From the IMG/VR virus record IMGVR_UViG_3300024257_000004: a stretch of DNA of 64,000 bases; one strand, 5' to 3'. The translations under genes were made by a program, and so were the position numbers. The DNA comes from a virus. Its lineage: Duplodnaviria; Heunggongvirae; Uroviricota; Caudoviricetes; Schitoviridae. Shown piece after piece: positions 7,530 to 60,450 of the stretch (the first letter of the stretch is position 1; each line of letters starts with the position of its first letter). The notes under the pieces were generated by a model. That model was not told where the DNA came from, ran no database searches, and was given only the letters and a program-made list of their open reading frames with translations.

Positions 7530-9833
7530 CTAAAATTCCCATCTCGCCACCTGTTCAATGATAGATATTCTGAATCGTTCATCGTCCATAGGATCATACC
7601 AGTAATCGTTGATTTCGTGCATAAGGGCGACCACTGATTCCTTAGTTGCCCCAAGGTCTTTAGCGTGCTTAGCGGCTCTGATTAACGCTCTAGAACAATT
7701 TGCTTCACACTCAAATGCATATGAGAATGTAGTAAGCTTGTTCTGTAACTGCGCGTCCATTTGAGACTTATTAAGTTTCTTAGGTTGTGAATTAGTTCCA
7801 GATAAAGCGTCAGATGAAGCTAATATAAACTCTTTGGCAGCTAATGGTTCTGCATCTAGTACTGATAGTACATTACGGTCTGCATAACTAAAATATATCT
7901 GCCCTTTAGGTAAGTTATCCACTTCAAGTTGCAGTTTATTTGCTATTGCTTGAATAAAGTATTTCCATTGTATGTCAGATACACTAACTACAGTATCTAG
8001 TTGCAGTAGTACTCTAAATTTAAATGGGTTATCTGGGTCCGACGTACGTGCTATATGGTGGTTAATGTCTTCAAGTAAGTAGTGAGCTTCCTCATCAGTA
8101 ATATCTGACGTATCGACATCAAGTACTACCCAAGAACACCCTCCTACGATATTATTACGACCTCTAACTCTGCCGCTAGGATTAGGATGCTTTTTACGAT
8201 CAATATCTGCACCGTTAAGTACATCCTTCAGCTCGAATGGTGTATAAGCAAAGTCATTAGTTAATAAATCAGCTAATTCTTCGAAAGAGGTTGGACCATA
8301 GTCATACCCGTGTACAGCAGTAGCAGCTACAAAAGCTTTAGCTTTCTTGATACGTTCATAGTCAGCATTTTCAGAAACTAGTTTCGCTACATTAGAATTA
8401 TCTACTTCTATATAGGATACGCCCATTTCCGTAGCAACTACCTGCTTTTCATAGCAGATGGCTGAGTTTTCTTTACAGATAGTGTATACGCCTTCTGGGT
8501 CATACGATGAAGCTAAATGTACTAATTCACACATATTAGTTGTTGAATCACCTTTAGGTGGTATGTATCCTAGCTTACGTAAGTCATGAAGAGTTATCAT
8601 AAACTTGTTATCAATAGCATGTAATTGCATATATTGAACAAATAGTTCATATGCTTCTTTCGATAATTGTTCTTCGAATGATAATAAATCCGGAGATAAA
8701 GTCTCTATAGTATTGATTGCATCGACATAATGAGATTCATTAATAGTTTCTGATTGATCAAGAATTGCGTAAGTACCTGATAATTTGAGGGCTAACCACT
8801 GCTTGTGTTTACGTGCTAGCTTACTTATAGGATAATGTGCATCTAAGTCTTCAGATTCTCTGGAGTTGTATTCAAGGTATATATCAAATAGGTCTTGAGC
8901 GCATGATTCCAGTGGTAATGTTTCCGGGATAGTATCAATATTAGTAACTAATTGATGAACATAGTCACCCACCAGTTCTTGAGCATGCGATACTCTTTCA
9001 CGTTCAGCTTGTTTATGTTTACGTACTTCTGTGATTGATTTGAAATTCTTCATCGGCACTTTATCTGGAGAGAAACTAAATAATGACCTACGTGCTAACT
9101 GTGTACTAAATACTGTACGAAATTTAGCCTTTATATTATTATCATAAAGAATAGCATCCTCTGAGCCAAATAGTAGAGCGTTAATAGGTAAAGCATTTAC
9201 TTCCCCGGTTTGATTCTCTGATGACTTAACAATCTTTGAAGGTATTTTACCTAAGTCATAACCAACTGCTATAGTTTTAATAATATCTATAAGTAGTGGG
9301 TTTGATTGTAGGTCAGTACCAATTTCAGACGTATTAACTGAAGCAGCTCCAATTGCCCCTTCTTCTAGGTGAACAAAATGTTGAACTAGTCCTTCTACTG
9401 TACCAAGACCAGCTTGTAGCGCTCTAGGTTTAGTATAGTAACTAATCCATTGATCAGTATTAGCTCCGTCAGCTTTAGCAGCTTCTTCGGCTTTTTGTAC
9501 AGCAAATTGTTCTCTGTAGTCTTCTATTATGTTATAAGATTGTTTAAATGCTTTTCTAATCATATTCATAGAACTATCTTTTGCTTGACCTGATCTTGCT
9601 AGTGCAAATGTAATAGCGTTACATGGTACTACAGTTCCGTCATGCAGTGTAATAGATCTACGTAGATGTGAAATCAGAGTAATTAACTCTGATAATGCTA
9701 TAGATAATCGTAAGTTATACGGAGCGTCTTCTGGGAGAATATCCACTGTTGCAGATACTACTTCGTGTGTAAGTGGTTTGAATGCCCCTTTACTCTCTAA
9801 GTGAGCACGTAGCATGTCTTTAGTTGTGCACAT
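7530..9833 (-). CDS. Putative replication protein with primase-polymerase (AEP)-like motif
   Basis: 767 aa with no Walker A. The C-terminal region has WVVLDVDTSD (hhhDhD), typical of AEP primase motif I. It sits between the ATPase and DNA polymerase genes. Confidence 0.4.
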   Translation of the reverse strand: MCTTKDMLRAHLESKGAFKPLTHEVVSATVDILPEDAPYNLRLSIALSELITLISHLRRSITLHDGTVVPCNAITFALARSGQAKDSSMNMIRKAFKQSYNIIEDYREQFAVQKAEEAAKADGANTDQWISYYTKPRALQAGLGTVEGLVQHFVHLEEGAIGAASVNTSEIGTDLQSNPLLIDIIKTIAVGYDLGKIPSKIVKSSENQTGEVNALPINALLFGSEDAILYDNNIKAKFRTVFSTQLARRSLFSFSPDKVPMKNFKSITEVRKHKQAERERVSHAQELVGDYVHQLVTNIDTIPETLPLESCAQDLFDIYLEYNSRESEDLDAHYPISKLARKHKQWLALKLSGTYAILDQSETINESHYVDAINTIETLSPDLLSFEEQLSKEAYELFVQYMQLHAIDNKFMITLHDLRKLGYIPPKGDSTTNMCELVHLASSYDPEGVYTICKENSAICYEKQVVATEMGVSYIEVDNSNVAKLVSENADYERIKKAKAFVAATAVHGYDYGPTSFEELADLLTNDFAYTPFELKDVLNGADIDRKKHPNPSGRVRGRNNIVGGCSWVVLDVDTSDITDEEAHYLLEDINHHIARTSDPDNPFKFRVLLQLDTVVSVSDIQWKYFIQAIANKLQLEVDNLPKGQIYFSYADRNVLSVLDAEPLAAKEFILASSDALSGTNSQPKKLNKSQMDAQLQNKLTTFSYAFECEANCSRALIRAAKHAKDLGATKESVVALMHEINDYWYDPMDDERFRISIIEQVARWEF

Positions 9834-10599
9834 TATAATTCCTTCATTATTTGTTTAATTTCCTCCGTAGAGCAGTTATTTGGTAGTTCAGTTTGACTAG
9901 CCCAGTCAGGGCCTATTTCTAGGTTAGCTTCGTTATGTACTATTTGATTATCCATAAAATCCTTCACCATAATTTCAACTAAGTTGTTATTTAGCCATTT
10001 AATTAAGGCTGGATCAGCTTTGATTATTCCATAAATTGAATCATAAATAGTCGACGTGACGTATAAGTCCGATTCAGGTATTTTAGCTTCTGCTTGTCTA
10101 TGGTGTAACTCATTAATTGAAATAGCAGTTAGTATTGACCAAAATTGTGAATTAGCGTTAAATAGCGTTCTTGAGTCTTTGTCTGGTGTATCAGAATAAA
10201 GCCTAAGACCTAATCCTATGTGAGTGTACCCAGTTTGTTTAACTTTATCGATTACCTTATTACGGAATGCTGATATATTTGGATACATCTTGTTATGGTA
10301 GTTATCAAAGATTTCCTGAGTAATAGTACCACCTTTATCAACATCAGGGAAGCCCCCATAAGCCAATTTGAAGGTTACAGGTTTAGACTCTTGTCTAAGT
10401 GCTCCGGCTTCTTCCGATGTCTTAGTAAGCTTTTTGAATAGTCTAGAAGCTTCCTTGTTATCAGTAAATTCTCCAACCATGTCTGCTATCCTATCCGGGT
10501 AGTAGTATGTAGCGGCTAATGAGTGGCCATCTAAGCCTTCAGAGAATACTGCGATTTTATTGTTATCCCCAGAAAGATTAGCTATAACTCTATCTTCTA
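9833..10599 (-). CDS. DNA polymerase I family (PolA), exon 2 (motif A second half, motif B, motif C)
   Basis: Carries motif B (KPVTFKLAYGG) and continues motif A (EDRVIANLSGD). It is in frame with exon 1 after removal of the intron, giving the spliced junction ...DYAAL|EDRVIANLSGD, which matches the PolA motif A DYSQIELRILAHLSGD. Confidence 0.75.
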
Positions 10600-11540
10600 C
10601 GTTTATATTCAACACAGCTCGTTAGGCTGTGCCGGTTCTTGCTTCGCTTACAGCGTTACAGGAAATCAAACTAACCCGGAGGATGCTGACTCGTTTGGAA
10701 CTCTATAAGCGAAGTGAACTCCTGCATGTTTCCATGCAGACTAGACTATATCATCATCCATGTAGGATGCTCACCACTTCCACCCACTTGGGTGTACTCC
10801 CTGCAAAGGGATAGTCGTTGCACGTTCCTCCGAAGAGGCTTCGCTCAGGATTGCCGGTAAATTAATACTACGGGTTTCCCTGAATTCGATGAGTTTGCTG
10901 TACACATTACTGCGTACAGGCGCTAGTTAATTAAGGTTCGAGACCAAAAATAGCCACCTGCGGATTTACGTAACCCACGAGTGACTTTGGATATATTTTG
11001 AAAAGGCACATTAGTTTGGCGAGTAGCTTCCCTATCGCTACAATAGGTAGCAATAAACTCACCAGATTTAGTGTACTGGTGTATCTCTTTAGAGCAGTGA
11101 TCATGAGTAGTTAACCCAGTATCAACTGCATGTTGAGAATTCTCCTGCTCAGTAGCCCATTCTAGGTTAGTTAAGCAGTTATTTAGCTTGTTACCATCGA
11201 TGTGGTTTACATGTGCCTTATTTTCCAAATTAGGTAAAAAAGTTTCACACATAAGTCTATGTACAGGTCTATTTCTACGAGAACCGCTATTGTCTACTAA
11301 TGTAACTATATAATAGTTGTTACTAGTATTTTTACTATTGTTTACTTGTTTAAGTATTTTAGAAGTTCCGTCTATTGTGTTTTTTCGTTTTTTGAGTGAT
11401 AGTACCTCTGTAGTCTCCCTACAGAGGTAATAGTCACTATACCCATTTATTTTTGTAAATTGTTTTTGTTCAAATACCATAGTAATCCTTTTTGTGTAGT
11501 CGAATTATAGGGGTATTTACCTTAAGTGTAACTTATGTTA
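10600..11540 (-). mobile_element. Group I intron (about 941 nt) interrupting DNA polymerase motif A, carrying an HNH homing endonuclease ORF
   Basis: Exon 1 ends with U and the intron ends with G (omega G at 10600). The 3' 320 nt (10600-10922) is GC-richer than flanking DNA and contains GNRA/UUCG-capped helices (CUGCAUG-GAAA-CAUGCAG, CCUC-UUCG-GAGG, GGG-AAA-CCC). An in-frame stop follows exon 1. Removal restores a perfect PolA motif A. Confidence 0.65.
10923..11480 (-). CDS. HNH homing endonuclease (intron-encoded)
   Basis: 185 aa with HVNHIDGNKLNNCLTNLEWATEQEN, an HNH motif followed by an AP2/NUMOD-like region. It lies inside the intron within the polymerase gene. Confidence 0.75.
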   Translation of the reverse strand: MVFEQKQFTKINGYSDYYLCRETTEVLSLKKRKNTIDGTSKILKQVNNSKNTSNNYYIVTLVDNSGSRRNRPVHRLMCETFLPNLENKAHVNHIDGNKLNNCLTNLEWATEQENSQHAVDTGLTTHDHCSKEIHQYTKSGEFIATYCSDREATRQTNVPFQNISKVTRGLRKSAGGYFWSRTLIN

Positions 11541-33454: not shown

Positions 33455-33458
33455 AAGG

Positions 33459-33540
33459 TTACCATATCAGGAATCGAACCTGAGACATCTTGCTTGTTTG
33501 CATTTTAAGGCAAGCGCTCTACCGACTGAGCTATACGGTA
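33459..33540 (-). tRNA. tRNA, type II (long variable arm), Leu-like with UAA in the anticodon loop; anticodon stem-loop irregular (4-bp stem, 8-nt loop)
   Basis: The minus-strand RNA reads UACCGUA-UA-GCUC-AGUCGGUA-GAGC-G-CUUGC-CUUAAAAU-GCAA-(14-nt variable)-UCAGG-UUCGAUU-CCUGA-UAUGGUA-A. The acceptor, D-arm and T-arm are canonical. Confidence 0.6.
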
Positions 33541-33546
33541 ATAGGT

Positions 33547-33692
33547 TACTCGAGTAGGGATTGAACCTACGGCCTTCATCGTGTAATGGTAAATCTGCTA
33601 GGATTTGAACCTAGAACCCCTAGACTAAGCTAGTGCTCTAACCAGTTGAGCTACAGATTTTGGATGACGCTCTACCACTGAGCTACCGAGTA
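33547..33692 (-). tRNA. tRNA-like gene interrupted in its anticodon loop by a complete second tRNA gene (outer gene; probable pseudo-tRNA or processed composite)
   Basis: The 5' half reads UACUCGG-UA-GCUC-AGUGGUA-GAGC-G-UCAUC-CA. The 3' half reads UUACAC-GAUGA-AGGCC-GUAGG-UUCAAUC-CCUAC-UCGAGUA-A. The acceptor halves (UACUCGG/UCGAGUA) and anticodon-stem halves (UCAUC/GAUGA) are complementary across a 73-nt insert. Confidence 0.5.
33588..33660 (-). tRNA. tRNA nested inside the anticodon loop of the outer tRNA-like gene (encoded CCA; anticodon arm noncanonical)
   Basis: The RNA reads AAAUCUG-UA-GCUC-AACUGGUUA-GAGC-...-CUAGG-UUCAAAU-CCUAG-CAGAUUU-A-CCA. The acceptor stem, D-arm and T-arm are perfect. 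The anticodon region (ACUAG-CUUAGU-CUAGG) has only a 6-nt loop. Confidence 0.5.
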
Positions 33693-51234: not shown

Positions 51235-53163
51235 TTATTTAAGTGCCATAGGGTCACACTTAAAGTCAGTTGTTAGAGGGTTAATTTGTTTACTAAGTTT
51301 TTGCCATTCCTTCATAGCATTACTGTTAAGTCTGATAGATTTGAAGTAATTATTCAGAATAGCTTCTCTATCTGCGTATACATCTTCTATTTTAGTTGCG
51401 TATAGTTCTCTAGTTTGTTGCGCATGTACAGGAGATACTATAAATGCGTCGTGTATAGTTAAAGCCCAAGGTAAAGCTTCACCGATTGAGTCAGCAATTT
51501 GACTATCAAGGTTATGTATTAGTAGTGTTTGGAAGTATCTTTTGAACTGTTTTAAGTCTGGTACTTTATGCGTATGTGTATGCGCTATGGCAAGTACAGA
51601 TCTATCAGCAGTAGAGTAGATAGGGTATCTTCTAGTGTAGTCTCCTACATTCTTGAATTTATTACAAGATATAGTAAATTCTTCATTCCAAATCTTTACA
51701 TCCATACTTTGAGATGGTTGTGCGTTATCAATTACCATGTTCTTGAAGTCATTAGCTACTGCGTAGAAGCCGTTCTTTACTTCGAAAGACATTAATGCTA
51801 ACTGCTTAGTAGTGTAGTCTAATCCTTTCTTATCCCAAAGAGTTTTAACTGTCTGAGATGAACCGTATAATGTAGGTGTAGCGTACGACTTAACTTGTAA
51901 CCTACTGATATTGTCTAAATGCCAAGGATCAGTGATACCAGTGTTAGTTAATACGTTAGTTGCTTCCATATAAGGTGTGTGGTTAAGTAATACACCAGTA
52001 AGTTGAAGCATAGATGCTGATGCGTCTAACTCAATAGGTACGTAAGAGTAGAAAGGTTCATCAGTATTTCTACTAAAGAATGCATCTAGCTCGTCATACA
52101 ATCTTTCTAGCCAAATTAGCTCGTGTAATTCACTTCTGTCATGGTCAGCTCGTGCTATTTCAGCCGTAACTTCATCGTCAGTCATGAACGAAGTTAATAC
52201 TTCTTGACAGTCTAGCTTAGGTAATTCTCTGTTTTTATACATTTCTTTACCGATTCTAGCCTTATCCTGTTCACTATCGCAGAATTTAGTACCATTTAGT
52301 TCAGCAATAAATAAGTAGATTGCATGTGTATACGCTCTTGCTTCTTTGAATGAGTTTGTTGGTACTAACGTAGCTGGATTAATAAGTAATGCTCTCGCAT
52401 CTTTGAATCCAATAGGGTTAAATACTTTCTTAAGTGCGTTAGATATAGCTCTACCTCTAGAGTCGTTGTAGTTAGCTCCAAGTGTAAACTCTTCTTCTGA
52501 GTACATATGGTAGTCAACGATATCTTTAGATATAGAATTATAATCTGCTCCATCTTCTACTAGTTCGTGTATTTCAGCAACTTTTCTCATAGATTTAGTT
52601 ACATTCATAACTATTGCATCATAGTACTTATATAAGTAATCTGTGTCATACTTAAAAGAGTTAGTTCCTGTAGTAGCGAACCCGTTTCTTGTAAGTCCAG
52701 TGTCTAACACTCTACCGTTTTGCTTAGTTAGGTTAGCGGCTGCGATATTTGGTTTATACTCTAGTTTATACTTGTTAAACTTAATAGCTTTTCTGATATT
52801 AGTAATAACTTCTTGAGGTACTACTTCTAGTAGTTTAGCTTCTACTAACTCTATTTCAGCCCAGTGTCTAGCTGGTACTACAATAGAGTTAATCCAACCT
52901 GCATCACTTAAATTCTTAAGGAATTGGTTGAATACTTTAGGATCTTCAAATTTATCATACCAGTAAGTAGTAGATATTGTAGATTTATTCTTAAGGTAGT
53001 TAGTCCATAGGTTCTTCCACATACTCTCCATTAGTTGTGTTGGTTCTTTGATTAAGTCTAATACTTCTACCGGAAAGCTTAGTTTACCTTGCTCTAGTTC
53101 TAATCTGAACTGCACTCTCTGCGCTAATCTTTGTTTTACTGTTGATATTACATTTACTGACAT
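51235..53163 (-). CDS. Single-subunit DNA-dependent RNA polymerase (T7-like / N4 RNAPII-like), 642 aa
   Basis: Motif A is LDASASMLQ (T7 DGSCSGIQH). Motif B is VKSYATPTLYGSS (T7 KRSVMTLAYGS). Motif C is LTIHDAFIV (T7 LIHDSFGT). The size is close to the fused N4 RNAPII p4 plus p7 (673 aa). Confidence 0.75.
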   Translation of the reverse strand: MSVNVISTVKQRLAQRVQFRLELEQGKLSFPVEVLDLIKEPTQLMESMWKNLWTNYLKNKSTISTTYWYDKFEDPKVFNQFLKNLSDAGWINSIVVPARHWAEIELVEAKLLEVVPQEVITNIRKAIKFNKYKLEYKPNIAAANLTKQNGRVLDTGLTRNGFATTGTNSFKYDTDYLYKYYDAIVMNVTKSMRKVAEIHELVEDGADYNSISKDIVDYHMYSEEEFTLGANYNDSRGRAISNALKKVFNPIGFKDARALLINPATLVPTNSFKEARAYTHAIYLFIAELNGTKFCDSEQDKARIGKEMYKNRELPKLDCQEVLTSFMTDDEVTAEIARADHDRSELHELIWLERLYDELDAFFSRNTDEPFYSYVPIELDASASMLQLTGVLLNHTPYMEATNVLTNTGITDPWHLDNISRLQVKSYATPTLYGSSQTVKTLWDKKGLDYTTKQLALMSFEVKNGFYAVANDFKNMVIDNAQPSQSMDVKIWNEEFTISCNKFKNVGDYTRRYPIYSTADRSVLAIAHTHTHKVPDLKQFKRYFQTLLIHNLDSQIADSIGEALPWALTIHDAFIVSPVHAQQTRELYATKIEDVYADREAILNNYFKSIRLNSNAMKEWQKLSKQINPLTTDFKCDPMALK

Positions 53164-55990: not shown

Positions 55991-56010
55991 CTTATCATAA
56001 ATTGACGAAG
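55991..56010 (-). promoter_or_regulatory. Conserved intergenic motif copy c (CTTATCATAAATTGACGAAG)
   Basis: The second copy in the tandem duplication. The flanking GTACTAAGTGCYTGTTG is also repeated (55963 and 56057). Confidence 0.4.
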
Positions 56011-56107
56011 GTGTACCGTACGTTGAGTGACGAGCTAGTACTATTACGTCGTACTAAGTGCCTGTTGTACTCTCTTGTACCCCTTACTAAAAACAAAGAG
56101 ATAGACC

Positions 56108-56389
56108 CTAAAGGTCTATTTCGATGTTTGTCGGTGCTGGATTATTAAGACGGTGTCTTACTAGTCCGCATATGTGAGGACCGTCGTCTTCACCGTATAG
56201 CTCCTCGAGCGTTTGTCCATTCAGTTTTTGACTGAATAGGATGCCGTATTGTACGGCCTTGTCTTTACTTGTAAAGTCAGCGTAAGCTGGTTGGTTGATT
56301 AGAGAGTTAGCGATCTTATCAGCAATTGTGTATTTAGTTTTTAATTCCATTCGAAATCCTTTTAGTATGTAGTTTTGGGTTAGAAACAA
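56108..56389 (-). CDS. Hypothetical protein
   Basis: 93 aa. It is the last gene of the leftward block. Confidence 0.45.
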   Translation of the reverse strand: MFLTQNYILKGFRMELKTKYTIADKIANSLINQPAYADFTSKDKAVQYGILFSQKLNGQTLEELYGEDDGPHICGLVRHRLNNPAPTNIEIDL

Positions 56390-56447
56390 TGCAGGTGGTC
56401 CTCGCCTTGCTCACGCAGGAGAATCTTTAGATTATTCCTTATCATAA

Positions 56448-56467
56448 ATTAACGAAGCGTAGCGTAG
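56448..56467 (-). promoter_or_regulatory. Conserved intergenic motif copy d (CTTATCATAAATTAACGAAG)
   Basis: Lies 60 nt upstream of the leftward gene starting at 56389. It is an exact match to the consensus. Confidence 0.4.
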
Positions 56468-56801
56468 GAAAAAGGGTCCCTTTTCTGGAAGAAACTTGAC
56501 CGGGGGGTACTTGTTCTGGGAGCAGGCTCCAAGCAGGTATACTGCCCACATTCAGAGAATTATAAAAATCAGTAAAAACAAAACTTAAACCAACCTTAAA
56601 CACCCCCTCCTGTACATAAGCCTTGAGGTTTTCCTGTAGTACCACGACTGAGCGAGTCCTGCTCGAATCGTAGGAGCACACGAAGAAGCGCAGCGACTGA
56701 GTAGTGCAACGGAGATTGAGTAAAGGATGAGTCGAAAGAGTGTGTACGGAATGGAAAATCGAATAGGCGTCCCTTCGGCAAAGATTAAGATTTCACCTAA
56801 T

Positions 56802-56937
56802 CGGGGTCAACTACTATAATATAACAGTACCTACCAGAAAAATAGAACATAACAGGGGTCGTGTACCCGATGAACACCGAAAAGTACCCTAAATAGTTAG
56901 AGTTATAAGGTACAAACAAGGGTCGTTATGTTATAAT
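56802..56937 (+). promoter_or_regulatory. Tandem promoter-like modules GGGTC-N6/7-TATAAT (56802-56820 and 56920-56937) upstream of the rightward operon
   Basis: A(A/C)AGGGGTCG(T) is repeated at 56802, 56851 and 56916. Copies 1 and 3 are followed at fixed spacing by TATAAT (56815-56820, 56932-56937). The second box lies about 28 nt before the RBS and ATG at 56966. Confidence 0.4.
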
Positions 56938-56965
56938 GGTACATATATTAGATAAAGGGGTTGAT

Positions 56966-57691
56966 ATGACAGATGTAAAAACTAGAGCTGGTACTGATGG
57001 AGCATTTCCTATTAATGAAGAATTAGCTGGGTTAGTTCCTATGGCTATTGCTAGTGAACAAGCTGTACTTACAATGGATATAAACGAACATGGTCAACGT
57101 GAGCCTATAGTGTTATGGAAAGGTGAGGTAGTAGATGGCCGGTGTAGACAAAAGGCGCTTATAACATTAGGTAAAGACTTGTATTATAAGGAATTAGATA
57201 GTGCTCTTACTGAGGATGAAGTGAAGATATTCGTTAAGAGTGTGAATACTAGACGAAACCTAACACAGACGCAGAAGATAATGAGCGCTTGTAGAGATTC
57301 CCTTAAGTCTAATAGTAAGTCAATAGTTGATACAGCTAAAGCCTGGGGTATTGGTGATAAGACTTTGAAGAATGCTAGATACGTAGCTAAGCAACGTCCT
57401 GAGTTCATAGATCCACTGTTCAATGGTAAGACTGTTACTATAGTTAATGTGAAAGGTGAGGAGATCGAAAGTAATAAGATCACAGCGATTTATGCTTTTA
57501 TTAAGAGGTTAGAGGAAGCAGTTATTGAGGATGTGGAGCATGCTTGGGATGAAAGGGCTGCTATCAAGACGCAAGCTGGAAAAGAGTGGTATTATAAACA
57601 AATGTCTGATATACAGGACTACGGTGACGTTAAAGCTAAGATGCTTATCGCAGAATTAGCGAATTATAAGTTTAAACAGAATAAAGATTAA
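56966..57691 (+). CDS. ParB-like nuclease domain protein
   Basis: GQREPIVLWKGEVVDGRCRQKA matches the ParB/Srx motif (PIvV....liDGhhRl.A). The start is AAAGGGG-N5-ATG at 56966; the ATG at 56936 in the track lacks an RBS. Confidence 0.6.
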   Translation: MTDVKTRAGTDGAFPINEELAGLVPMAIASEQAVLTMDINEHGQREPIVLWKGEVVDGRCRQKALITLGKDLYYKELDSALTEDEVKIFVKSVNTRRNLTQTQKIMSACRDSLKSNSKSIVDTAKAWGIGDKTLKNARYVAKQRPEFIDPLFNGKTVTIVNVKGEEIESNKITAIYAFIKRLEEAVIEDVEHAWDERAAIKTQAGKEWYYKQMSDIQDYGDVKAKMLIAELANYKFKQNKD

Positions 57692-57734
57692 GGTGTATAA
57701 CGATATACTGTTATCATAATTACATAGGAGAACC

Positions 57735-59451: not shown

Positions 59452-59733
59452 TGTTTAAAATAGATCACTTACCCAAATGAGCTTACACTGCTGAAGAGTG
59501 GGGTGAGCTCAAGAAGGGCGCGTACGCGGCGGTAGGAGATACGTTGTATTCTAGGTTTAAGGAGAATATAAGTAAACCTGCTGTAAAATGTCAATCTATA
59601 AAAGGTTTACTTCGCAGTAGAAGTACTACCATAGACGAATAGAAAGGTTAAACATGAACGTATGTATAAGTTGTGGTGATACTGTACCAGACACTTACGT
59701 AGTTTCCCCTAACTGTTCAAATAAATAATTTAT

Positions 59734-59809
59734 GCTGTTGTAGCTCAGTTGGTAGAGCACCTCACTTGTAATGAGGCGGTCGGTGGTTCAAATCCTCTCA
59801 ACAGCTCCA
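59734..59809 (+). tRNA. tRNA-Thr (anticodon UGU)
   Basis: GCUGUUG-UA-GCUC-AGUUGGU-AGAGC-A-CCUCA-CUUGUAA-UGAGG...CAACAGC-U-CCA. The cloverleaf has a 7-bp acceptor stem and an encoded CCA. Confidence 0.8.
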
Positions 59810-59810
59810 C

Positions 59811-59886
59811 GGGGAATTAGCTCAGCTGGGAGAGCGTCTGCCTTGCACGTAGAAGGTCATCGGTTCGAACCCGATATTCTCCACCA
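59811..59886 (+). tRNA. tRNA-Ala (anticodon UGC)
   Basis: GGGGAAU-UA-GCUC-AGCUGGGA-GAGC-G-UCUGC-CUUGCAC-GUAGA-AGGUC-AUCGG-UUCGAAC-CCGAU-AUUCUCC-A-CCA. A G3:U70 pair is present, as expected for tRNA-Ala. Confidence 0.85.
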
Positions 59887-60022
59887 TATGAATTTATTAG
59901 ACACTGATTATGGAACCGGTAAATTAACTGGGGACTATTGAGTTAGAACACAATCTCTGTTCCGTGAATTCACAACACATATCTGCTCCGCCTCTCTATG
60001 AAGCGCAACCGAGCAGGTCTTT

Positions 60023-60097
60023 GGTCCCTTCATCTAATGGTTAGGATTTTGGATTTTCATTCCAACCATAGGAGTTCGAATCTCCTAGGGATCACCA
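60023..60097 (+). tRNA. tRNA-Glu (anticodon UUC)
   Basis: GGUCCCU-UC-AUCU-AAUGGUUA-GGAU-U-UUGGA-UUUUCAU-UCCAA-CCAU-AGGAG-UUCGAAU-CUCCU-AGGGAUC-A-CCA. Confidence 0.8.
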
Positions 60098-60100
60098 TAT

Positions 60101-60174
60101 TGACGTATCGCCAAGCGGTAAGGCCGTAGCTTTTGGTGCTACTATCCTAGGTTCGATCCCTAGTGCGTCATCCA
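60101..60174 (+). tRNA. tRNA-Gln (anticodon UUG)
   Basis: UGACGUA...GUAGC-UUUUGGU-GCUAC-UAUC-CUAGG-UUCGAUC-CCUAG-UGCGUCA-U-CCA. Confidence 0.8.
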
Positions 60175-60189
60175 TAAATAATAATAAGT

Positions 60190-60266
60190 GCGGTTGTAGT
60201 TTAGTTGGTTAGAATGCCTGCCTGTCACGCAGGAGGTCGCGAGTTCGAGTCTCGTCAACCGCGCCA
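60190..60266 (+). tRNA. tRNA-Asp (anticodon GUC)
   Basis: GCGGUUG-UA-GUUU-AGUUGGUUA-GAAU-G-CCUGC-CUGUCAC-GCAGG-AGGUC-GCGAG-UUCGAGU-CUCGU-CAACCGC-G-CCA. Confidence 0.85.
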
Positions 60267-60271
60267 CTTTT

Positions 60272-60347
60272 TCCGAATTAGCTCAGTTGGTAGAGCGCAC
60301 GACTGTTAATCGTGTTGTCGATGGTTCGAGCCCATCATTCGGAGCCA
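60272..60347 (+). tRNA. tRNA-Asn (anticodon GUU)
   Basis: UCCGAAU-UA-GCUC-AGUUGGU-AGAGC-G-CACGA-CUGUUAA-UCGUG-UUGUC-GAUGG-UUCGAGC-CCAUC-AUUCGGA-G-CCA. Confidence 0.85.
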
Positions 60348-60362
60348 CAAATTTAAAATGTA

Positions 60363-60450
60363 GAGAGTTGACAGAGTTGGTCGAATGTACCGGTTTTGAA
60401 AACCGGCGAGGTTTACGCCTCCAGCGGTTCGAATCCGCTACTCTCTGCCA
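60363..60450 (+). tRNA. tRNA-Ser (anticodon UGA), type II with long variable arm
   Basis: AGAGAGU...CCGGU-UUUGAAA-ACCGG-(variable arm CGAGGUUUACGCCUCC)-AGCGG-UUCGAAU-CCGCU-ACUCUCU-G-CCA. Confidence 0.8.

Follow-up and report, generated by a model that had tools for sequence, protein, structure and literature searches.

How does a phage arrange the start of two gene blocks that are read away from each other? This question is raised by a non-coding gap in the viral record IMGVR_UViG_3300024257_000004, of which we analysed a window of 64,000 nucleotides (nt) to which all coordinates refer if not stated otherwise. An earlier note on this DNA had left three options for the gap, i.e. a leader or non-coding RNA, replication iterons, or a place at which promoters for the host RNA polymerase (RNAP) and for a phage RNAP are integrated, the last of these being the best fit to our data. 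We read the gap as a control region, composed of four modules, from which early and late transcription diverge in an uncultivated marine podovirus that is AD45-like and distantly related to coliphage N4, and assign this reading a probability of roughly 0.6. As an object the gap is of an ordinary kind, a phage divergent control region; it is neither an RNA gene nor a replication origin.

The gap between the leftward and rightward gene blocks

The divergent non-coding region described in the earlier note is real, its limits being 56351-56965 (614 nt) instead of 56390-56965. To the left it is bounded by a leftward gene of 80 amino acids (aa) with its ATG at 56350. To the right, the gene of a protein with ParB fold most plausibly starts with the ATG at 56966 behind the ribosome-binding site (RBS) AAAGGGG (both within 56954..56968, + strand) rather than at 56936; this is the first gene of the rightward block, and relatives align from here. 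Small open reading frames (ORFs) inside the gap start with codons other than ATG or lack a usable RBS, and gave no family hits. The rightward block contains, in this order, the ParB-fold gene, an exonuclease, seven tRNAs and the terminase, and the leftward block small ORFs followed by genes for replication and nucleotide metabolism. The same layout is found in Alteromonas phage AD45-P1, where a divergent gap separates small early genes from the gene of a ParB N-terminal domain, a gp69-like gene and the terminase. Because the block layout matches that of AD45-P1 and the gap divides leftward from rightward genes, the gap is the early/late switch between a leftward (early, replication) and a rightward (ParB-like, exonuclease, tRNAs, terminase) block; the gene content of both blocks thus bears out the switch point that had been proposed.

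The AD45 phages are N4-related podoviruses with genomes of 100-104 kb (PMC3821669). Window and AD45-P1 have the gene order ParB-like protein, phrog_2109 protein and large terminase in common, and a 642-aa protein of the window (51235-53163) has matches limited to the Alteromonas phages vB_AmaP_AD45-P1 to P4, with 42% identity. In AD45-P1, two proteins (ORF126 and ORF127) gave matches to phrog_2206, the family of virion RNA polymerases (E 2e-57 and 5e-115; cf. PMC3821669). Contigs identical to the window, up to 115 kb long, are present in marine metagenomes. Neither positions 56000-57700 (megablast, blastn) nor the ParB-like protein (tblastn) matched any of 50,697 phage records, and phmmer searches of PDB sequences gave nothing for the ParB-like protein, the 642-aa protein or the virion polymerase of AD45. 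We gathered relatives via the ParB-like protein, resulting in 441 homologues, and compared ~90 relatives; compared loci carry L-numbers, L122 being AD45-P1 and L123 coliphage N4. Aligning the gap directly to 116 related loci by blastn and single-sequence nhmmer retrieved identical copies alone.

The gap had been called much more GC-rich than the genome, which is overstated. Its GC content of 43.1% indeed exceeds the 36.4% of the window (97.6th percentile among windows of the same size), but the excess comes mostly from one insert of 180 nt, the three parts 56455-56604, 56605-56785 and 56786-56965 having 43.3%, 50.3% and 35.6%, respectively, the last of these containing the promoters.

The rightward promoters and their operator cores

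Two predicted promoters, P1 and P2, lie in tandem in front of the ParB-fold gene, both on the + strand and with an exact TATAAT at 56815 and 56932, respectively. P1 (56792..56820) reads TTCACC-17-TATAAT, matching the sigma70 consensus at 10/12 positions with a spacing of 17, within the 16-18 bp expected for a sigma70 promoter, and has a box core GGGGTCA (56803-56809) within its spacer, 5 nt before the -10 box. P2 (56906..56937) is composed of box 1 TAAGGTACAAA (56906-56916), box 2 CAAGGGTCGTT (56917-56927) and the extended -10 element TGT-TATAAT (56929-56937), i.e. TGTTATAAT, of which just four such sites exist on the + strand of the window. That the rightward operon has tandem -10 modules, as had been suggested, agrees with the positions kept in relatives: 78/87 distinct relatives have a proximal -10-like hexamer 18-48 nt ahead of the ATG, and 13/70 have a distal exact TATAAT 129-169 nt ahead of it, most of these 13 showing the arrangement [lineage core]-(C/A)A(G/A)AAC-AT(ATA)-TATAAT-A. 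The comparison shows two tandem, predicted host-type promoters serving the block that starts with the ParB-fold gene.

In the 78 relatives with the proximal hexamer, TAAG peaks at two distances from it, at -26 (29/78, within 1 nt) and at -15 (29/78), and P2 of the window fits both peaks exactly with TAAG at 56906 and CAAG at 56917. The pattern [TC]AAG-N7-[TC]AAG-N10-12-TAnnnT has 64 matches in 598 kb compared to 11.3 in shuffles. More than half of these (35/64) lie directly before the ParB-like gene; of the remaining ones, most of which are on the + strand, several fall within the rightward block beyond the ParB-like gene. The phage of the window has two such matches, one ahead of the tRNA cluster (59558) and one just past the terminase gene. 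Because the tandem TAAG pattern recurs at other rightward genes, P2 is by its sequence predicted to belong to a class of promoters with two boxes, helically phased, instead of the -35 element.

The match at 59558-59589 (+ strand) is a tandem-TAAG plus TAAAAT site ahead of the tRNA cluster 59734-60450, which has seven genes (Thr, Ala, Glu, Gln, Asp, Asn and Ser); since this site lies upstream, the tRNA genes would belong to the rightward, late-type block.

Comparable arrangements are known from activated promoters. The pho boxes of PhoB are two 11-bp (base pair) direct repeats adjoining the -10 element, and the MotA-box middle promoters of T4 are activator-dependent and lack a -35 element. P2-type promoters resemble both in having a consensus or extended -10 element, no -35 element and two direct repeats phased by 11 bp across the -35/spacer region, and in the reuse of this arrangement at several genes of one temporal class, which by analogy suggests an activator-dependent class working in a PhoB/MotA-like manner. 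The comparison concerns the mechanism only and not membership, the T(T)AAG box sequence fitting neither PhoB nor MotA and the second box ending ~5 bp before the -10 element. The rightward promoters are also similar to the sigma70-type late promoters of N4 in combining a good -10 element with a -35 element that is poor or absent. They differ in their tandem TAAG boxes, which are not described for N4 late promoters, these being activated by N4SSB without DNA binding (PMC4496689). We found no description of a tandem-TAAG promoter class with swappable operator cores.

Next to the -10 boxes, three copies of A(A/C)AGGGGTCG(T) had been reported. They do form a local cluster unique in the window; their fuller reads differ, i.e. 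aatcGGGGTCAac (56803), aacaGGGGTCGtg (56855) and aacaAGGGTCGtt (56920) with the cores GGGGTCA, GGGGTCG and GGGTCG, and the 12-mer AACA(G/A)GGGTCGT is common to two of them only. Likewise, TATAAT follows two boxes as claimed, with a spacing of 5 and 6 nt, respectively, which is similar though not identical. Three GGGTC[GA] within 120 nt occur here alone in the window, with ~0.002 expected, a post-hoc figure, and GGGTC[GA]-N4-7-TATAAT is found nowhere in the window but at these two places. Beyond the gap the repeat is sparse: of the three GGGTCG copies on the + strand of the 64 kb, two are in the gap, and AGGGGTCGT with one mismatch gives four matches window-wide compared to 4.4 expected, i.e. 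no enrichment of the 9-mer. The middle GGGGTCG copy is part of a 15-bp dyad GGGGT-CGTGT-ACCCg (GGGGTCGTGTACCCG, 56855..56869), and GTACCC recurs at 56884-56889.

Repeats that are not conserved in related phages would have refuted the reading of the earlier note, which is not what we found. L120 and L121 carry the same GGGGT core as the window, with ACAGGGGTCA at P1 and the P2 boxes TAAGGTACATA and TAAGGGTTAGT (L121), and L120 has two GGGGT-N5-ACCCC dyads in the same P1-to-P2 interval. Other relatives have different cores at the same places: at P1, the place of GGGGTCA is taken in the alignment by AGACAGA (L010, L117) or by GGACACA (L119), and within each phage one core recurs in the P2 boxes, e.g. 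GCCAGA, GACAGA, GGACA or TGCGCA and, in the window, GGGTC. Repeated 7-mers in the interval of the boxes are significant in many relatives, their number being reached by 0/300 shuffles in L103, L073, L059 and AD45 and by 3 to 8 of 300 in L010, L111, L117, L119 and L069. These observations suggest the GGGTC(G/A) repeats being lineage-specific cores of operator-like sites, with a half-site by each -10 box and a dyad between the promoters. Because all copies in a genome change together at fixed positions beside the -10 boxes, a sequence-specific regulator encoded by the phage most likely reads the cores and would thereby tune the rightward operon.

In AD45-P1 (L122, 34270-34480), GTATAAC or GTTATAC occurs seven times in 245 nt of the divergent gap (0/300 shuffles), being the AD45-P1 version of the repeated boxes; a TAAG tandem is missing there.

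The first gene downstream of the boxes offers itself as the source of this regulator. Its product has no Pfam match; the predicted structure (mean predicted local distance difference test score, pLDDT, 84) gave ParB-N, Noc, ParB and KorB as best fold matches, and the protein shows 23% identity (E 1e-8) to AD45-P1 gp028, annotated as ParB N-terminal domain. A ParB-fold protein binding the GGGTC boxes and autoregulating its own operon like repressors of the KorB/ParB family would be consistent with the modelled ParB/Noc/KorB-like N-terminal domain and helix-turn-helix fold, with the position of its gene and with the presence of the 15-bp dyad at 56855-56869 and of a 15-bp palindrome at 56470-56484, and as in KorB, ParB and Noc such a protein is encoded beside a promoter region with dyads. 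However, the cores do not follow the similarity of the proteins: L120 and L010 have proteins with 79% identity (89% in the C-terminal third), yet the L010 boxes are AGACAGA; L120 has the window's GGGGT core at 68% protein identity; boxes are identical between L117 and L012 at 55% and differ between L019 and L090 at 80% protein identity. The window thus differs from KorB, ParB and Noc in operator cores that do not co-vary with the protein, and also in most box copies being direct-orientation half-sites; of what defines a ParB-parS or KorB-operator pair, the fold is present and co-inherited cognate palindromic sites are not. Because the cores do not track the protein, we down-weight the ParB-fold protein as reader of the boxes and regard its binding to these repeats, which the earlier note had proposed to examine, as rather unlikely; the regulator is probably another protein encoded elsewhere.

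Repeats in a large non-coding gap adjoining a ParB-fold gene might also be initiator iterons of a replication origin. The short repeats lie beside an AT-rich block, and the cumulative GC skew turns at the gap, where the strand composition switches. An iteron origin would have at least three direct repeats of ~17-22 bp at regular spacing next to an initiator gene. The units here are only 6-9 nt long, irregularly spaced (52 and 64 nt) and in both orientations, one of them being a dyad, they abut -10 boxes in all relatives, no Rep-type gene is adjacent among the flanking ORFs scanned with Pfam and PHROGs, and the change of the coding strand accounts for the skew switch. The iteron option of the earlier note is accordingly very unlikely.

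The G-run element and the leftward side

Left of the promoters, the gap contains a conserved element of ~140 nt that emerged only after an alignment anchored on G-runs and the building of a profile. A run of G6-10 upstream of the ParB-like gene occurs in relatives far above the expectation for genomes with 30-40% GC, and in the window the run 56502-56507 is the sole G or C run of at least 6 in 64 kb. The nhmmer profile of the element has one match in the window (56497-56590, E 1.6e-9), one in the whole AD45-P1 genome (34494-34571, E 2e-10) and one per locus in ~25 different loci of relatives, showing the element to be single-copy. Its orientation is that of the ParB-like gene throughout, and in most loci examined it is located where the ORFs part to the left and to the right. 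We found no description of such a single-copy element, which we regard as newly noticed.

The consensus layout starts with A5-6GG and a GGGWCCC-type palindrome, followed by a short triloop hairpin and the G-run with TAC; after ~28 variable bases follow rGTAyT, (T)TACAAAA, an AT-rich stretch, yAyATr and tandem CTTAA(A/G) units 11 bp apart. In the window, the left half (56469..56494, +) has the A-run 56469-56473, the 15-bp palindrome AAAAGGGTCCCTTTT (56470-56484) and the hairpin TTTCT-GGA-AGAAA (56482-56494), and the core (56497..56590, +) has the G6 run (56502-56507), TAC, a GTATACT box and the AT-rich block ending with TAAAAAC. The tandem CTTAAAC units, 11 bp apart (56584-56590 and 56595-56601, together 56584..56601), read as TTTAAG twice on the - strand; TTAAR-N6-TTAAR has two occurrences on the + strand of the window, and L010, L117, L119 and L120 keep the tandem as CCTTAAA-N5-CTTAAG. 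In L120 a gene for an HNH endonuclease (356-1174, an insertion of 820 nt) lies between the element halves GGGGTACTA and ACCCTTCTCACAAAA, and because it divides them there, the halves are separable.

The left half in L120 is similar to that of L010, the right half to that of the window. Because the L120 halves resemble different phages, the sequences suggest the gap being a recombination breakpoint.

The small hairpin is the sole structural feature of the element that holds up. Triloop hairpins with at least 4 bp beside the G-run are present in 13/23 elements compared to 12.7% of shuffles, and G-R-A triloops in 6/23 compared to 0.013 expected per element. The hairpin of the window has a 5-bp stem and a 3-nt loop and lies on the + strand, which is the template for the leftward genes. 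Promoters of the N4 virion polymerase have the loop G-R-A, a C:G closing pair, G at -8 and a C at +1, 11 nt from the loop centre (PMC4496689), and the geometry of the element hairpin also resembles LUZ7 early promoters (PMC9163698). The likeness to N4 extends to the related group (N4-like portal, terminase and primase, and a gp50-like virion RNAP in AD45-P1), to the divergent early and late blocks, to the 5-bp-stem GGA-triloop hairpin on the early-gene template strand and to a homopolymer G/C run upstream of the hairpin as at the N4 left end. AD45, L072 and L073 have TAC-GRA-GTA in common, and 11 nt away from the loop centre their template strand has a C, fitting the N4 geometry with the C:G closing pair and the C at +1, but with A at -8. 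There are also differences: the virion RNAP is split in AD45, as known for this cultured relative and not for the phage of the window, and the G-run of the window abuts the hairpin, whereas in N4 (L123) a C10 run (31-41), 30 nt from the left terminus, lies ~55 nt upstream of the hairpin of an early promoter, also named P1; no function was assigned to this run in the N4 literature examined. The leftward early operon probably has its start region in the left half with A-run, GGGWCCC palindrome, triloop hairpin and G-run, which could be an N4-style hairpin site for a virion RNA polymerase; we treat this as the leading hypothesis and not as a finding, because the hairpin of the window is without the closing pair and the -8 and +1 bases of N4. 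The right half with the TTACAA-like box, the AT-rich spacer and yAyATr probably serves rightward transcription as an upstream promoter or control site.

The synteny with N4 brings in another explanation, namely that the gap holds the physical genome termini (a direct terminal repeat) and the start of packaging, the G-run element being a terminus or pac signal. In N4 the right and left ends would join between the late and early blocks, the early block being at the left end and the late genes on the opposite strand, the gap lies between equivalent blocks, the C10 run of N4 is only 30 nt from its terminus, and the element is single-copy per genome; moreover, the AD45-P1 record starts with a cut first coding sequence, and the 437-bp terminal repeats reported for it may be an assembly overlap (PMC3821669). 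This explanation is unlikely in view of the AD45 authors' placement of the repeats 34 kb from here, at the ends of the record (PMC3821669), of many contigs crossing the region unbroken and of the L120 element tolerating the 820-nt HNH insertion.

Alternatively, the conserved blocks separated by variable short hairpins might belong to a small or leader RNA, either of ~80-100 nt across the G-run element, with a stem-loop followed by a T5-6 run on the - strand, or as a structured 5' leader of the ParB-like operon including the insert, as a P1 transcript would have a leader of ~139 nt containing the GGGGT-N5-ACCC stem. This option of the earlier note is quite unlikely: there is no match in Rfam (Rfam 15) even at E up to 10, folding z-scores are near 0 for the whole gap (-0.8, +0.5), for the insert (-0.9, +0.4) and for 23 elements (mean between -0.5 and 0 on both strands), RNAalifold gives no consensus pair, helices are out of register between relatives, and the HNH gene splits the element in L120. 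Helices after the G-run that had looked covarying by eye were dropped, as they are not in register between relatives.

The leftward side of the gap starts with a repeated 17-mer, the conserved motif that had been noted at the left edge. The copy at 56438..56454 (- strand) is one of four of CGTTAATTTATGATAAG(G) with at most one mismatch, all on the - strand (56454, 56007, 55947 and 53991), a number reached by 0/100 shuffles. Three of these copies sit 88-93 nt ahead of the ATG of a leftward gene, and an upstream sGTAC-type motif at each of them lengthens the 17-mer to ~28 nt. We found no hairpin common to the copies and, in a scan of viral contigs, single chance matches only. By sequence, the 17-mer appears to be specific to this phage and would act like a promoter for a phage-encoded polymerase.

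In L010 (3427-3455 and 3667-3695) and L117 (~1905-1925), a hairpin motif CTAGCY-NNN-RGCTAG with CTTAGTRTAGTGG (read on the - strand) precedes every leftward small gene, resembling the N4/LUZ7 hairpin promoters. Equivalent places in the phage of the window have the non-hairpin 17-mer instead.

Between the element and P1 lies the orphan insert of ~180 nt (56605..56785), which is lineage-specific, being missing from L117, L010, L119 and L120. It is not similar to any compared locus or to the rest of the window, has no Rfam or Pfam match and no significant fold, and its ORFs have poor starts. The repeated element that had been placed at 56643 and 56693 is found here as CGACTGAG at 56645 and 56694, i.e. 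2 nt and 1 nt off; the window has three copies compared to 0.8 expected (2/100 shuffles reach three), and a scan of viral contigs for CGACTGAG-N30-55-CGACTGAG gave single chance hits only.

Proposed working and further features of the phage

These data support a model according to which the 17-28-mer, a promoter-like motif by its position and one of four, would precede small leftward genes, and the left half of the G-run element would start the leftward early operon, maybe via a virion RNA polymerase. The right half would act as an upstream rightward promoter or control site, and the 180-nt insert would be an orphan spacer. P1 with its sigma70-like -35 and -10 elements and P2 with its extended -10 element and TAAG boxes one helical turn apart would drive the rightward block, a phage regulator presumably reading the GGGTC(G/A) cores and tuning the operon.

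Several points weigh against this model. On the leftward side, the hairpin of the window is closed by T:A, with C at -8 and a predicted T at +1, contrary to the N4 requirements; it is a single site compared to three early promoters in N4, several copies being expected for an N4-type promoter and the four repeated leftward motifs of the window having no hairpin; and no virion RNA polymerase gene is found in the 64-kb window, which has no ORF >830 aa. On the rightward side, the TAAG-like units of P1 are at -29 and -17 from the -10 hexamer instead of the canonical -26 and -15, the box repeats of the window are weak, no exact 7-mer occurring more than twice, and activator and repressor of these promoters are hypothetical. 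Finally, all transcription start sites are predictions, and the model leaves the 180-nt insert unexplained.

A wider claim, which we make only tentatively, is that two undescribed devices may define a widespread marine N4-related clade, i.e. the G-run/triloop element as entry site of a split virion RNAP, a variant of the N4 system, and late-type promoters with two phased T(T)AAG boxes, which a phage activator would read, instead of the -35 element, and with lineage-specific operator cores that are exchanged as modules and independently of the ParB-fold gene. AD45-like phages are abundant in marine metagenomes, as shown by the 441 ParB-like homologues, and to our knowledge nothing is known about their transcription programme. 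The comparative map provides testable promoter and operator sites in a clade with a cultured member, AD45-P1 growing on Alteromonas, and would reveal how the N4 strategy of virion polymerase, hairpin promoters and late host polymerase has diverged under a split virion polymerase.

The 642-aa protein (51235-53163, - strand) has a faint match to an RNA polymerase family (phrog_2051, E 8e-4), and its AD45-P1 homologue is in three pieces around a GIY-YIG gene. This protein may be the counterpart of N4 RNAPII, reported missing in the AD45 paper.

At the 3' end of the 80-aa gene, a hairpin with a 10-bp stem and T-rich flanks (56098-56122) resembles a bidirectional terminator. A group I intron (10722-10943, - strand; Rfam 99.8 bits) lies between the leftward ORFs 10923-11480 and 9833-10615, which resemble exons of one split gene, and a TAAG-TAAG-TATAAT promoter-type match is located just upstream at 11535 (- strand). 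Two tRNA-like genes (33457-33540 and 33587-33660, - strand; Rfam 62 and 56 bits) have abnormal anticodon loops according to ARAGORN, with an 'anticodon' of four bases in one and of two bases in the other.

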